Positions 10,036 through 11,307 of a stretch of 19,196 bases of DNA are shown piece after piece. Position 1 is the stretch's first letter. Every line of letters begins with the position of its first letter. A program made the position numbers and the translations under genes. The stretch lies in IMG/VR virus record IMGVR_UViG_2534682325_000029; one strand, given 5' to 3'. The notes beneath the pieces were generated by a model. The model ran no database searches. It saw only the letters and a program-made list of their open reading frames with translations, and had not been told where the DNA came from. This stretch comes from a virus. Lineage: Duplodnaviria > Heunggongvirae > Uroviricota > Caudoviricetes.

Positions 10036-10599
10036 ATGACTGAATTAACCAAAGAATGGCTACAGAACACGATTACCGGAATTGAGTCATCACGGGATGA
10101 AATACCGTTCGGACTCGATGAAGATCAAAACAACATGCTTACCGCATTAAAAATTGCACTGGCATCACTGGCATCAGTATCGGATGAACGGGCAGCCTAT
10201 GAATTATTTATGGAGAAGCGTTTCGGGGAATCTGTAGATCGCCGCAGAGCAAAAAATGGCGATAGAGAATACATGGCATGGGATATGGCGCTTGGCTGGA
10301 TTATCTGGTGTCACCGCGCCGCCATGCTTCAGGCTGGAAACTTTCGGGAAAATAAGGGTTCGTCAACCAATAATTTTCGGATAATCTCGGAAACGTCAAC
10401 CAACTCTCCGGCAATCCCTGATGAGGTGTTGTCCGCAATCCTGAAGGTCGCCAGGCTTCGTGCAGATTTCGATGCTTCTGAAGTGGACAGGCGAGGTATC
10501 GGTAGTTGTCTGGATGAGGCCGAGCAAGAACTTATCGTTACCATTAACGAATACGCCAGTCAGATCGCAGTAGAAGCGACACAGGGGGAGAACCAATGA
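10036..10599 (+). CDS. Hypothetical protein (187 aa), unknown function
   Basis: Long uninterrupted ORF in the same orientation as the early-right operon. Preceded by a perfect hairpin ACCGCCC-GAAA-GGGCGGT 8 nt upstream of the ATG. Confidence 0.5.
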   Translation: MTELTKEWLQNTITGIESSRDEIPFGLDEDQNNMLTALKIALASLASVSDERAAYELFMEKRFGESVDRRRAKNGDREYMAWDMALGWIIWCHRAAMLQAGNFRENKGSSTNNFRIISETSTNSPAIPDEVLSAILKVARLRADFDASEVDRRGIGSCLDEAEQELIVTINEYASQIAVEATQGENQ

Positions 10600-10673
10600 G
10601 CCGGCCAGATGCATTTGCAGGCGTTGCTATAGCTATTGCTTTTCTAGTATATGTTATTTGTCGGTGGGGGTAA
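10596..10673 (+). CDS. Putative 25-aa hydrophobic peptide (MSRPDAFAGVAIAIAFLVYVICRWG)
   Basis: Hand-translated ORF below the track cutoff. ATGA overlap with upstream gene and SD AGGGGGAG 8 nt upstream. Single predicted transmembrane helix. Confidence 0.3.
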   Translation: MSRPDAFAGVAIAIAFLVYVICRWG

Positions 10674-10708
10674 AAACGTTCGCCGGGATTCACACCAAGG
10701 GAGGGAAT

Positions 10709-10813
10709 ATGTCGGATGATATTTCACTGGTAATGGAAGGCGCTCTGGCTGTTATTGCTGTTGTGGGTGTTTACTGCCTGGTTGTGTTTTTGATGGAGCG
10801 CCTGGGGAACTGA
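10709..10813 (+). CDS. Putative 34-aa hydrophobic peptide (MSDDISLVMEGALAVIAVVGVYCLVVFLMERLGN)
   Basis: Hand-translated ORF below the track cutoff. Strong SD AAGGGAGGG 5 nt upstream of the ATG. Single predicted transmembrane helix. Confidence 0.35.
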   Translation: MSDDISLVMEGALAVIAVVGVYCLVVFLMERLGN

Positions 10814-11056
10814 ATTCATTCCGTATGGGAATTCCCATATCGGGCAAAACGGTTTGCTGTAAAGCGAGAGTTAAGTAGAATTGCTGCGGGTGCTTGAGGC
10901 TGTCTGCCTCGGGCATGCCACCGTAAGGCAGACAGAGAAAAGCCCCAGTTAACATTACGCGTCCTGCAAGACGCTTAACATTAATCTGAGGCCCAATCTA
11001 TGCTTCACAAACGTAGGTTAGCCTCTTACGCGCCGAAAGGCAAGGAGAAGCAGGTT

Positions 11057-11212
11057 ATGAAGCAGCAAAAGGCGATGTTAATCGCCCTGATCGTCATCTG
11101 TTTAACCGTCATAGTGACGGCACTGGTAACGAGGAAAGACCTCTGCGAGGTACGAATCCGAACCGGCCAGACGGAGGTCGCTGTCTTCACAGCTTACGAA
11201 CCTGAGGAGTAA
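11057..11212 (+). CDS. hokD: Hok/Gef-family type I toxin, HokD(RelF)-like (51 aa)
   Basis: MKQQKAMLIALIVICLTVIVTALVTRKDLCEVRIRTGQTEVAVFTAYEPEE matches the Hok/Gef family (hydrophobic helix, conserved Cys, periplasmic tail) and HokD of K-12 as recalled. SD AAGGAGAAG upstream. The ORF-track 70-aa version adds an in-frame upstream extension. Confidence 0.85.
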   Translation: MKQQKAMLIALIVICLTVIVTALVTRKDLCEVRIRTGQTEVAVFTAYEPEE

Positions 11213-11280
11213 GAGACCAGGCGGGGGAGAAATCCCTCGCCACCGCTGATGTGTCAGGCATCCTCAACGCACCCGCACTT

Positions 11281-11307
11281 AACCCGCTTCGGCGGGTTTT
11301 GTTTTTT
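11281..11307 (+). terminator. Rho-independent terminator after hokD
   Basis: AACCCGC-TTCG-GCGGGTT followed by TTGTTTTTT. Confidence 0.7.

Follow-up and report, generated by a model that had tools for sequence, protein, structure and literature searches.

The locus described here raises two questions: what restrains its copy of hokD, and what the small reading frames and inverted repeats just upstream of that gene contribute. Its home is a lambdoid prophage of O157:H7 E. coli, where it occupies the nin-like region, with replication genes on one side and DUF968, RusA and Q on the other; the whole stretch of DNA analysed, 19,196 nucleotides, is called the window below. According to the original prediction, two short hydrophobic open reading frames, each with a Shine-Dalgarno (SD) sequence, precede a HokD gene, in a context unlike that of prophage Qin of E. 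coli K-12, and two inverted repeats lie in the interval. Both reading frames, here ORF1 and ORF2, and both inverted repeats were located, and relB-relE indeed stands immediately 5′ of hokD in Qin. Related prophages keep both ORFs, the palindrome and the stem, which are thus beyond chance. Very probably the interval is made of three adjacent, separable modules, as follows: ORF1; a cassette with ORF2 and a palindrome; and a canonical, complete hok/mok/sok locus. The cassette spans ~175 bp (about 10677-10851), and its edges, set by aligning the window against 933W, are AAAACG(G) repeats.

The hok/mok/sok locus and its relatives

Judged from its sequence, the segment 10854-11307 is a complete hok/mok/sok type I toxin-antitoxin locus, the Sok antisense RNA included. 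In the following list, the sequence and structure elements are those present in the DNA, and the transcript ends are predicted.

10854-10881, plus strand: putative hok promoter, with -35 TTGCTG (10854-10859), a 16-nt spacer and -10 TAGAAT (10876-10881)
10888-11307, plus strand: predicted full-length hok mRNA, from the full-length RF01794 match and fold prediction
10888-10899, plus strand: tac, the 5′ element of the hok mRNA
10900-10909 and 10926-10935, plus strand: stem of the hok 5′ hairpin, CTGTCTGCCT/AGGCAGACAG, with covariation
around the mok start, plus strand: Sok target within the hok mRNA
10938-11008, minus strand (11008->10938): Sok antisense RNA homologue, ~71 nt, by homology to sokW and sokC
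11000-11212, plus strand: mok reading frame, 70 aa, beginning 57 nt 5′ of hok and in frame with it
11015-11043, minus strand: putative sok promoter, with -35 TTGCCT (11043->11038), a 17-nt spacer and -10 TAACCT (11020->11015)
11057-11212, plus strand: hok (HokD), 51 aa, MKQQKAMLIALIVICLTVIVTALVTRKDLCEVRIRTGQTEVAVFTAYEPEE, RefSeq HokD WP_000813254.1
11262-11274, plus strand: fbi, the 3′ element of the hok mRNA
11281-11298 plus a T run, plus strand: intrinsic terminator at the hok mRNA end

The toxin fits the Hok/Gef family, whose members have about 50 aa, a membrane helix at the N-terminus and conserved Cys; it scores 81.6 bits against the Pfam profile HOK_GEF (PF01848; cut-off 22) and matches PHROG 251 (7.7e-33); its match to the NCBIfam Hok subfamily (E 1.5e-12, 47.2 bits) is under the curated cut-off of 73. 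The mok frame has the layout annotated for K-12 mokC and 933W mokW, and by analogy hok translation would be coupled through mok. The hok leader matches Rfam RF01794 with 114.9 bits (E 6e-26) over model positions 1-157 of 157, and position 1 of the model aligns to 10888, near which hok transcription would start. The -10/start region is also kept in K-12 hokC (TATAAT) and 933W hokW. Both the putative hok promoter and the putative sok promoter are weak matches to consensus and are placed by homology: a consensus scan with a threshold of 9 of 12 called neither, the sok promoter having 7/12 matches. Both sok hexamers are identical in 933W, and the equivalent region of K-12 sokC aligns. A match to an isrK-like RNA on the hok 3′ end, at 27.2 bits against a gathering threshold of 50, was dismissed as a generic hairpin-plus-terminator resemblance.

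RNA structure prediction yields the long-range 5′-3′ fold expected of a hok mRNA. In both the minimum-energy and the centroid folds, tac (10888-10899) is predicted to pair with about 11262-11274, that is, with fbi, and the minimum-energy fold joins 5′ GGGUGCUUGAGG to 3′ CCUCAACGCACCC. The fold has a z of -6.61, and 0/100 shuffles were as stable. The 10-bp stem of the leader had been singled out as an oddity and placed at 10898-10934. The stem exists, 1-2 nt away from those positions, and it is the canonical, conserved 5′ hairpin of hok mRNAs rather than a peculiarity of this prophage. RNAalifold analysis of 16 diverse hok leaders found two of its pairs with double compensatory changes (AU7/GC4/GU2/UA1 and CG14/UA2), and the structure of the leader is thus conserved.

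It had also been stated that no Sok-like antisense promoter is obvious and that it is unclear what restrains this hokD copy. Neither statement holds. A Sok homologue, with the hexamers TTGCCT-17-TAACCT before it, lies on the minus strand; its coordinates were carried over from the sokW misc_RNA annotated in NC_000924, and it aligns to the annotated sokC of K-12 as well as to the annotated sokW of 933W. The mok start region at 10995-11008 has its complement in the 5′ tail of Sok, GUGAAGCAUAGAUU, which covers the mok AUG. The remainder is a long hairpin (-31.4 kcal/mol, z = -4.75) followed by GGGGCUUUU. Alongside Sok, the locus has mok, tac, fbi and the terminator, and the Sok and tac/fbi controls would be what restrains the hokD copy.

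The proposed working of the locus is as follows. The weak promoter, with its TAGAAT -10, would give a hok mRNA of ~420 nt, which the pairing of 5′ tac with 3′ fbi would hold inert. Slow trimming at the 3′ end would let the mRNA refold, making mok and then hok translatable. The short-lived Sok RNA (11008->10938), made from its own promoter, would pair at the mok start region and lead to decay of the mRNA. Hok would kill solely once the supply of Sok ends.

The hokW-mokW-sokW locus of Stx2 phage 933W/Sakai prophage Sp5 (Takada et al. 2021, PMC8621323) has 93% DNA identity to the window from promoter to fbi (window 10846-11278). The two loci share the in-frame arrangement of mok and hok, the sok promoter hexamers, the Sok hairpin and their residence in a lambdoid prophage of O157:H7. 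Both have a gene of the ORF1 family 5′ of the locus; in 933W it is unannotated and directly adjacent. They differ in that the window has the ~175 bp of extra cassette between ORF1 and the hok promoter, and in the 3′ flank and terminator. Furthermore, the window locus lies 5′ of Q, whereas hokW is near the phage end. The toxicity of hokW and its neutralisation by sokW were demonstrated experimentally, in work that included mutation of the sokW -10 (PMC8621323), and by analogy the window copy, for which toxicity and antitoxin action are carried over from this 93%-identical pair only, would behave likewise. Unlike hokW, the window Hok aligns to K-12 HokD with no differences, and HokD was one of the toxic controls, already characterised, of a toxicity assay of 45 homologues (bioRxiv 10.1101/2025.08.07.668861).

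The hokD gene of K-12 Qin (relF) aligns to the window along its coding sequence, without differences, and along its 3′ UTR with fbi and terminator. The synteny downstream is also common to both, namely a small ORF, DUF968 (ydfU) and Q. Homology begins, however, at the hok SD, and relBE occupies the upstream side. That is, Qin hokD is without the hok promoter, tac, the 5′ hairpin, the mok start, the Sok target and the sok promoter, all of which are intact in the window. Compared with the truncated K-12 hokD, the window hokD is intact and ancestor-like, and hokW-sokW is its close relative. The Qin gene would be a derived copy, in which relBE took the place of everything 5′ of the hok SD. The same architecture is found in K-12 hokC/sokC (RF01794), with a 5′ hairpin, mok, Sok antisense to the mok start and a 5′-3′ fold-back; the window Sok hairpin is 18 nt longer than that of SokC. 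The hok/sok (parB) system of plasmid R1, in its published description, has this architecture as well.

The two small membrane peptides

The two reading frames upstream of hok are as follows.

10596-10673, plus strand: ORF1, 25 aa, MSRPDAFAGVAIAIAFLVYVICRWG, single-pass membrane peptide
10709-10813, plus strand: ORF2 (type A allele), 34 aa, MSDDISLVMEGALAVIAVVGVYCLVVFLMERLGN, single-pass membrane peptide, RefSeq hypothetical protein WP_001278460.1

ORF1 has an SD, GGGGGAG, at 10584-10590; its start codon and the stop codon of the upstream 187-aa gene overlap as ATGA. We infer that it is translated by coupling to that gene, within the early rightward operon. RefSeq leaves ORF1 unannotated at the window locus. 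From its residues, ORF1 is probably an unusual member of a prophage family of 23-27 aa, MxWPEAF...RWG, which is widespread, is defined here rather than curated and is characterised by an N-terminal MxWPEAF, one helix, a C-terminal (C)RWG and the start-stop overlap. An HMM of the window ORF1 finds this family at E 1e-14. The window peptide departs from it by W3R, E5D and a 2-aa deletion, and keeps the P, the A-F, the helix and the CRWG; given these departures, the window ORF1 could be decaying. About 45 alleles of the family occur in IMG/VR prophages, with hok downstream or not, and the relatives show an in-frame 6-nt indel. In deep comparisons, pS is 0.63-0.78 against a pN of 0.20-0.26. The SD and the ATGA coupling persist next to three different upstream genes. 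Other ORF1 alleles have a nonsense codon at position 3, an early stop, or an Asp inside the membrane segment.

ORF2 is preceded by the SD AGGGAGGG at 10698-10705. Its type A comprises 8 nucleotide alleles, each of 34 aa, which differ by just 3 replacements, all conservative, but at 8 synonymous-only sites (ATT/ATA/ATC taken as two); the window and O111 pair gives an NG86 omega of 0.15. Between type A and the diverged type B, pS is 0.55-0.78 and pN 0.30-0.32, and the stop position is shared. Thus, by Nei-Gojobori comparison both ORFs are under purifying selection and conserved as coding. On this count, and given the conserved structure of the leader, the grounds that the original prediction named for its own rejection do not apply. 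An allele of ORF2 type A (...MSDDISLAMEGALAVIAVVGVYCLVVFLMDRLGN), in a different prophage copy of O157:H7 Sakai, is XECs145, for which both transcription and translation have been reported (Huecker et al. 2017, PMC5597208). Its ribosome coverage value (RCV) in S2 Table is 4.35, with a coverage of 0.99, in growing LB cultures; the profiling concerns this paralogous allele, and reads may multi-map between prophage copies. S8 Table lists it as a predicted inner membrane protein with 1 helix. The XECs145 start given there is N-terminally extended (54 aa), whereas RefSeq, like the ATG that follows the SD, puts the length at 34 aa.

Neither peptide has a credible family in Pfam, NCBIfam or PHROGs, in which the best matches (E 0.0065-0.27) are to unrelated short profiles. 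A cluster look-up placed ORF1 together with 121-aa DUF551 proteins and ORF2 together with xanthine dehydrogenases; once the sequences were read, both groupings proved to be clustering artefacts rather than fusions. The helices of ORF2 and Hok look alike, but the idea that ORF2 is a truncated Hok paralogue was abandoned, as the HOK_GEF profile has no match to it even at E <= 1. In a set of 1.84 billion representatives, ORF2 has just 6 close relatives, and a degenerate DNA pattern of its C-terminal half had no match in 185,579 species-representative genomes; it follows that ORF2 is absent from these and that its family is narrow. A literature search by the peptide sequences returned no paper text.

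The peptides had been proposed as possible additional type I toxins, in which case ORF1, ORF2 or both would each be kept in check by a small RNA, antisense or divergent, that has escaped recognition. Their small size, single hydrophobic helix and strong SDs fit this reading, and a minus-strand, promoter-like TTTACC-17-TATACT (10674->10646) could give an RNA antisense to the 5′ part of ORF1; moreover, close alleles hardly differ in the 3′ half of ORF1, where this site lies. The site, however, is a 9/12 match, where chance would give 0.7 such matches in the region, no terminator follows it, and the same stretch varies freely at synonymous sites in diverged alleles, so that it was rejected as an antisense promoter. 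No Rfam match at E <= 1 is present across 10400-10880, and a scan for an antisense gene gave no convincing candidate. ORF1 is coupled within an operon, unlike stand-alone type I loci, and the ribosome occupancy tabulated for the ORF2 allele in LB is unexpected for a repressed toxin. The proposal is unsupported, and we regard it as highly improbable. Hardly any better is the view that both frames are chance ORFs or decaying, non-functional remnants in mosaic prophage DNA, which is very unlikely. For it speak the missing family annotation of both, the absence of ORF1 from the RefSeq annotation, the ORF1 alleles with codon-3 nonsense or an early stop, the atypical window allele, and one pINV copy of ORF2-B that is frameshifted at its end. 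But synonymous sites are near saturation while replacements reach only 0.20-0.32, length and stop position are constant across allele types, the SD and ATGA coupling of ORF1 outlast changes of the upstream gene, and the profiling data of PMC5597208 support translation of ORF2. Most likely, then, ORF1 and ORF2 are real genes, for ordinary small phage membrane proteins rather than toxins.

The palindrome and the linkage of ORF2 with hok

Besides the stem, two inverted repeats lie between ORF2 and hok.

10824-10839 (extended 10821-10843), either strand: palindrome TATGGGAATTCCCATA, 16 bp and perfect, with a CCG...CGG extension and one bulged T
10844-10857, either strand: second small hairpin, GCAAA-ACGG-TTTGC, which follows the palindrome and overlaps the hok -35

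The palindrome is unique in the window even allowing 2 mismatches (0.00 expected from 200 shuffles). In relatives it is perfect over 22-26 bp, with the core CGATATGGGAATTCCCATATCG. It is centred at -56.5 from the predicted hok transcription start. As RNA it has a folding energy of -15.6 to -20.3 kcal/mol; a classical intrinsic terminator was discarded as its identity, there being no U tract on either strand. It is missing from the loci with ORF2 type B (0/91), from 933W hokW and from hok on E. coli plasmids of ~85-136 kb, and it remains with hok in three loci where ORF2 has been replaced (L008, L039 and L118).

We tentatively suggest, as a possibility with some way to go before it is probable, that the palindrome acts as an RNA hairpin at which ORF2-containing read-through transcripts end or are processed just before the hok promoter. 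The palindrome might instead be a DNA operator, bound by a dimeric host or phage protein that regulates the adjacent hok promoter. The perfect 22-26 bp symmetry in relatives and the position of its centre would suit an operator, as would its staying with hok across replacements of the upstream DNA, and the sole variant seen (locus L007) alters a central position, as many operators tolerate. Each of these observations is fitted equally well by an RNA hairpin, however. The 19-kb window has no second copy or cluster of half-sites, and hok loci with the same promoter but without the palindrome are common, at least one of them functional. We know of no E. coli operator consensus that the palindrome resembles, which also counts against an operator. 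We consider an operator doubtful; if there were one, Hok expression would be tied to a physiological or phage signal.

The other point to be weighed is the linkage itself. Among IMG/VR viral contigs, a hok leader follows ORF2 type A in 105/106 loci, ORF2 type B in 72/91 and ORF1 in 119/180. A linkage this tight could reflect a functional tie between ORF2 and hok that is overlooked when they are treated as ordinary neighbours. ORF2, possibly with ORF1, would then be a functional third component of the prophage hok locus, and could act either as a membrane peptide that modulates the insertion or toxicity of Hok (immunity or enhancer) or through read-through RNA into hok. Besides the counts for the two types, which are saturated at synonymous sites and both stand directly 5′ of hok, 8 nt separate the stop codon of type B from the hok -35, 3′-end stubs of ORF2 remain 5′ of hok where the rest has been replaced, and a Shigella pINV copy retains ORF2-B beside a decayed hok remnant. 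Functional hok loci are often without ORF2, however, among them the experimentally functional hokW of 933W, those of the ~85-136 kb E. coli plasmids and K-12 hokC. In addition, 19/91 type-B copies are not followed by hok, no similarity was detected between the sequences of ORF2 and Hok, and in mosaic prophages such linkage can come from shared descent of a small block of DNA. We therefore hold a third component to be unlikely. The supplementary tables of PMC5597208 make no mention of a link between XECs145 and hok, and a recent survey of Hok proteins has no discussion of upstream ORFs or palindromes.

It is tempting to extend the idea to ORF2 and the palindrome together, as an accessory cassette that partners the prophage hok, either by a peptide that tunes Hok or by a transcript processed at the hairpin. 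The basis is the ~90% linkage of ORF2 with hok in two anciently diverged allele types, together with the ORF2 stubs, and on this basis we judge such a cassette quite unlikely. If it were true, the classic hok/sok of two parts would here have a variant with three, and by the transcript route phage early transcription, as on induction, would be coupled to the activation of Hok.

Our preferred reading of the interval, with ORF1, the ORF2 cassette and hok/mok/sok as separate modules, removes a false puzzle, in that the window hokD is not unrestrained. The MxWPEAF...RWG family is mostly unannotated, even in the 933W reference genome directly 5′ of hokW, and ORF2 (XECs145), a real gene of narrow taxonomic range, is nearly always accompanied by hok. 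For annotators, it is also of note that a palindrome of 16-26 bp is conserved beside hok promoters of the window's type. If ORF2 or the palindrome influence hok expression, they would add an extra layer to a textbook system.

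The hok mRNA and its antisense RNA

Across 10036-11700, many E. coli O157:H7 chromosomes match the window with 100% identity; the window as a whole is a lambdoid prophage of this serotype. In RefSeq, the gene order opens with exonuclease, dicB, genes resembling cI and cro, replication genes and a number of hypothetical genes. Hypothetical proteins of 187 aa and 34 aa (the latter WP_001278460.1) and hokD come next, and the series closes with a hypothetical protein of 92 aa and then DUF968, RusA, antiterminator Q and three tRNAs. In 13978-14224 and 14998-15170, directly past Q, are the tRNA genes, which the matching RefSeq record annotates as Ile, Arg and Arg, and after them an STnc100 sRNA match of 100.8 bits; a TerB-family pseudogene carrying an internal stop lies in between. 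Downstream of the SASA esterase gene is an IS3-family insertion sequence (17239-18452, minus strand) with two ORFs, 108 and 296 aa long, that overlap, and an ALIL frameshift pseudoknot (18055-18171, 121.5 bits); the 100%-matching strain PV15-279 has holin and lysis genes there.

The features of the hok region, including all those listed in the original prediction, which were confirmed in the window sequence, are as follows.

Features of the hok region (window positions)
10584-10590, Shine-Dalgarno sequence of ORF1, GGGGGAG
10596-10673, ORF1, predicted membrane peptide of 25 aa, conceptual translation as in the original prediction
10698-10705, Shine-Dalgarno sequence of ORF2, AGGGAGGG
10709-10813, ORF2, predicted membrane peptide of 34 aa, conceptual translation as in the original prediction
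~10799-10805, junction in the last ORF2 codons, paa-adhesin context and PPompW phages
10824-10839, palindrome TATGGGAATTCCCATA
within or next to the left palindrome arm, junction in related loci L118 and L039
10876, junction in ~85-136 kb E. coli plasmids
11000, start of a mok-like frame of 70 aa, in frame with hok (11057-11212)
11020->11015, minus strand, sok -10, TAACCT, 6 nt upstream of the mapped Sok start
11043->11038, minus strand, sok -35, TTGCCT, 17 nt further upstream than the -10
11281-11298, intrinsic terminator, after the 3′ arm of the fold-back

The Rfam model RF01794 aligns in full to plus-strand positions 10888-11062 (114.9 bits; gathering threshold 59). It is named "sok", yet the model is built on the hok-mRNA leader strand, and the 10-bp stem (arms 10900-10909 and 10926-10935) falls inside its first helix. 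Among 16 diverse hok leaders analyzed with RNAalifold, one pair of this stem is AU in 7, GC in 4, GU in 2 and UA in 1, and a second is CG in 14 and UA in 2. These compensating pairs identify the stem as the 5′ hairpin of hok mRNA, which is conserved and covarying. When 10888-11305 is folded as RNA (z = -6.6), a long-range pairing is predicted; in both the minimum-energy and centroid structures, GGGUGCUUGAGG at the 5′ end pairs with CCUCAACGCACCC at the 3′ end (11262-11274). We take this pairing to correspond to the tac/fbi fold-back in the hok model published by the Gerdes laboratory. The in-frame arrangement of the mok-like frame and hok is the same as the annotated layout of K-12 mokC/hokC and 933W mokW/hokW.

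Two further observations concern the 3′ part of the transcript. The codon for Tyr47 of hok lies in a UACG context (11195-11198), and in the mRNAs of hokC, hokD and hokE that Tyr is reported to be recoded to Cys by TadA A-to-I editing (bioRxiv 10.1101/2025.08.07.668861). The Salmonella prophage sRNA isrK gives a sub-threshold Rfam match at 11221-11302 (27.2 bits; gathering threshold 50), which spans a hairpin and the terminator and is probably a generic resemblance.

The original prediction found no obvious Sok-like antisense promoter and left unclear what restrains this hokD copy. The minus strand can be aligned to the annotated K-12 sokC and its upstream region, and the whole locus (10846-11278) is 93% identical to hokW/sokW of Stx2 phage 933W. 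Mapping the SokW antisense RNA of the 933W record through the ungapped alignment places the Sok homologue at 11008->10938, behind a predicted TTGCCT-17-TAACCT promoter whose hexamers are both identical in 933W. At its 5′ end the predicted Sok RNA is single-stranded over GUGAAGCAUAGAUU, a tail complementary to mok's start region, and a long hairpin follows (-31.4 kcal/mol, z = -4.75). HokW is toxic and is neutralized by sokW expressed from its own promoter; mutation of that promoter abolishes the protection (Takada et al., PMC8621323). With a Sok homologue and promoter in place and these data for sokW, the view that a Sok promoter is missing, or that this copy's restraint is unclear, is therefore not supported.

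Two small coding sequences upstream of hok

The start codon of ORF1 shares an ATGA overlap with the stop codon of the gene before it; in the ORF1 family this overlap and the embedded Shine-Dalgarno sequence are kept behind three different upstream genes. Among close ORF1 alleles, replacement and synonymous changes are mixed and not decisive taken alone; these alleles include an in-frame 6-nt indel (25 versus 27 aa), one nonsense mutation at codon 3, one allele ending two codons early, and a common one with Asp within the helix. Deeper alleles in IMG/VR prophages (MTWPEAFTTVGIAMAVALVVYSICRWG, MTWPEAFANVGTVMAVVLVVYSICRWR and ~45 further variants, 23-27 aa) have pS of 0.63-0.78 versus pN of 0.20-0.26, and it is these, not the close alleles, that settle coding status. 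Against this family the window allele is unusual, carrying W3R and E5D and lacking two residues. In IMG/VR, hok lies within 450 nt downstream in 119 of 180 ORF1 copies and in none of the other 61; by these counts, ORF1 is a small phage gene in its own right that often adjoins hok. Phage 933W carries an unannotated 27-aa member of the family, MTWPEAFANVGTVMAVVLVVYSICRWR (618-701 of retrieved locus L185; NC_000924 reverse strand, about 58826-58909), which has the ATGA overlap with the upstream stop and whose end lies 30 nt short of the hokW -10.

ORF2 has two diverged allele types, type A, that of the window, and type B. The ORF2 block is 88-98% identical in related E. coli prophages, often behind another upstream gene (DUF551). 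Type-A copies comprise eight nucleotide alleles, all of 34 aa, with eight synonymous-only variable sites (an ATT/ATA/ATC codon holding two) and three conservative replacements; omega is 0.15 for the window and O111 pair. Type B, found by tblastn of plasmids, encodes 29-30 aa (MLVLKGTLAIAAVMTIYCLIVVLMERFSD), and in E. coli-like contigs lies directly upstream of an intact hok, its stop 8 nt from the hok -35. Between the types, pS is 0.55-0.78 and pN 0.30-0.32, with no indels and a shared stop position, the pattern of a protein-coding gene. No match was found in curated family libraries, and close relatives number only six among 1.84 billion representative proteins.

The N-terminus and upstream DNA of type A differ from those of type B, so recombination within the ORF joined the two types. 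L375 and other type-B loci have their own conserved non-coding upstream region, with a promoter-like TTGAAT-17-CATATT ~160 nt before ORF2; this region is also recognizable in the Shigella plasmid copy. On Shigella virulence plasmids, type B lies upstream of icsP beside a decayed hok promoter and 5′ hairpin, and no hok gene is present there; the DNA upstream of icsP thus derives in part from a hok locus. In S. flexneri pCP301 (L130, 1498-1700; also L131) the 29-aa gene in the icsP/sopA upstream region looks intact, and in S. dysenteriae pSLG231 a 1-nt deletion lengthens it to 40 aa.

As to function, the original prediction suggested additional type I toxins, and both peptides have the size and hydrophobicity of such toxins. 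However, the sole promoter-like site in antisense orientation (10674->10646) matches no better than chance and lacks a terminator, the ORF region has no Rfam match, and ORF1 is translationally coupled within an operon. Moreover, XECs145, a type-A allele listed in the supporting material of Huecker et al. (PMC5597208), is well translated in growing cells; the values given there for LB are a transcriptome RPKM of 79, a translatome RPKM of 346, a ribosome coverage value (RCV) of 4.35 and a coverage of 0.99, and a one-helix inner-membrane protein is predicted (S2, S3, S8 and S10 Tables). On this evidence a toxin role is therefore very improbable. ORF2 might, with low probability, be a functional partner of hok, and its linkage fits: a hok leader lies within 450 nt downstream of 105 of 106 type-A and 72 of 91 type-B copies in IMG/VR. 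Yet functional hok loci without ORF2 exist, as do ORF2 copies without hok; the remaining 19 type-B copies are followed by unrelated DNA.

The palindrome and its cassette

The window differs from 933W by ~175 bp holding ORF2 and the palindrome, flanked by AAAACG(G)TT repeats (10671-10678 and 10846-10854). This cassette could stem either from insertion between ORF1 and the hok promoter or from deletion in the 933W lineage.

TATGGGAATTCCCATA is unique in the window even allowing two mismatches, and none is expected in shuffles. In most relatives the palindrome is perfect over 22-26 bp, with the core CGATATGGGAATTCCCATATCG. Loss of one A has left the window copy with 16 perfect bp and a 3-bp extension with a bulge. 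The palindrome is retained with hok where ORF2 is replaced (L008, L039 and L118) and is absent from all 91 type-B loci, 933W hokW, the hok loci on ~85-136 kb E. coli plasmids and K-12 hokC. As RNA, the palindrome and a small adjacent hairpin give -15.6 to -20.3 kcal/mol; neither strand has a U tract after it, and the terminator scan did not call it. Its center is at -56.5 relative to the inferred hok start. It could act as an RNA hairpin at which upstream read-through ends or is processed, or as a DNA operator, or it could be a structural by-product left by the recombination that gave rise to the cassette; we weakly favor the RNA hairpin.

On the minus strand, 10752-10955 holds a 67-aa ORF, the counterpart of the published "novel gene" XECs166 (Sakai 1768946-1769215 in PMC5597208; ...MPEADSLKHPQQ...YGNSHIG...), which is antisense to a hok 5′ hairpin, promoter and palindrome of another Sakai prophage and has an RNA RPKM of 166-637. 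XECs166 looks like antisense transcription across the palindrome, possibly Sok read-through, and not a real gene.

The locus among known hok loci

In K-12 Qin, relB-relE immediately precede hokD, as had been noted, and alignment with the window begins only at the hok Shine-Dalgarno sequence. By this comparison, K-12 Qin hokD is the truncated derivative. Every testable sequence-level feature that defines hok/sok was found in the window, whose locus is complete and canonical; it is closely related to hokW-sokW and is the intact form corresponding to K-12 hokD. A recent survey of Hok diversity describes hok as enriched in prophages and contains no discussion of the upstream ORFs or palindromes (bioRxiv 10.1101/2025.08.07.668861). 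Overall, the locus is ordinary and explainable, with a few small annotation-level findings, of which two, the ORF1 family as now recognized and the nearly constant adjacency of ORF2 and hok, are modestly new.
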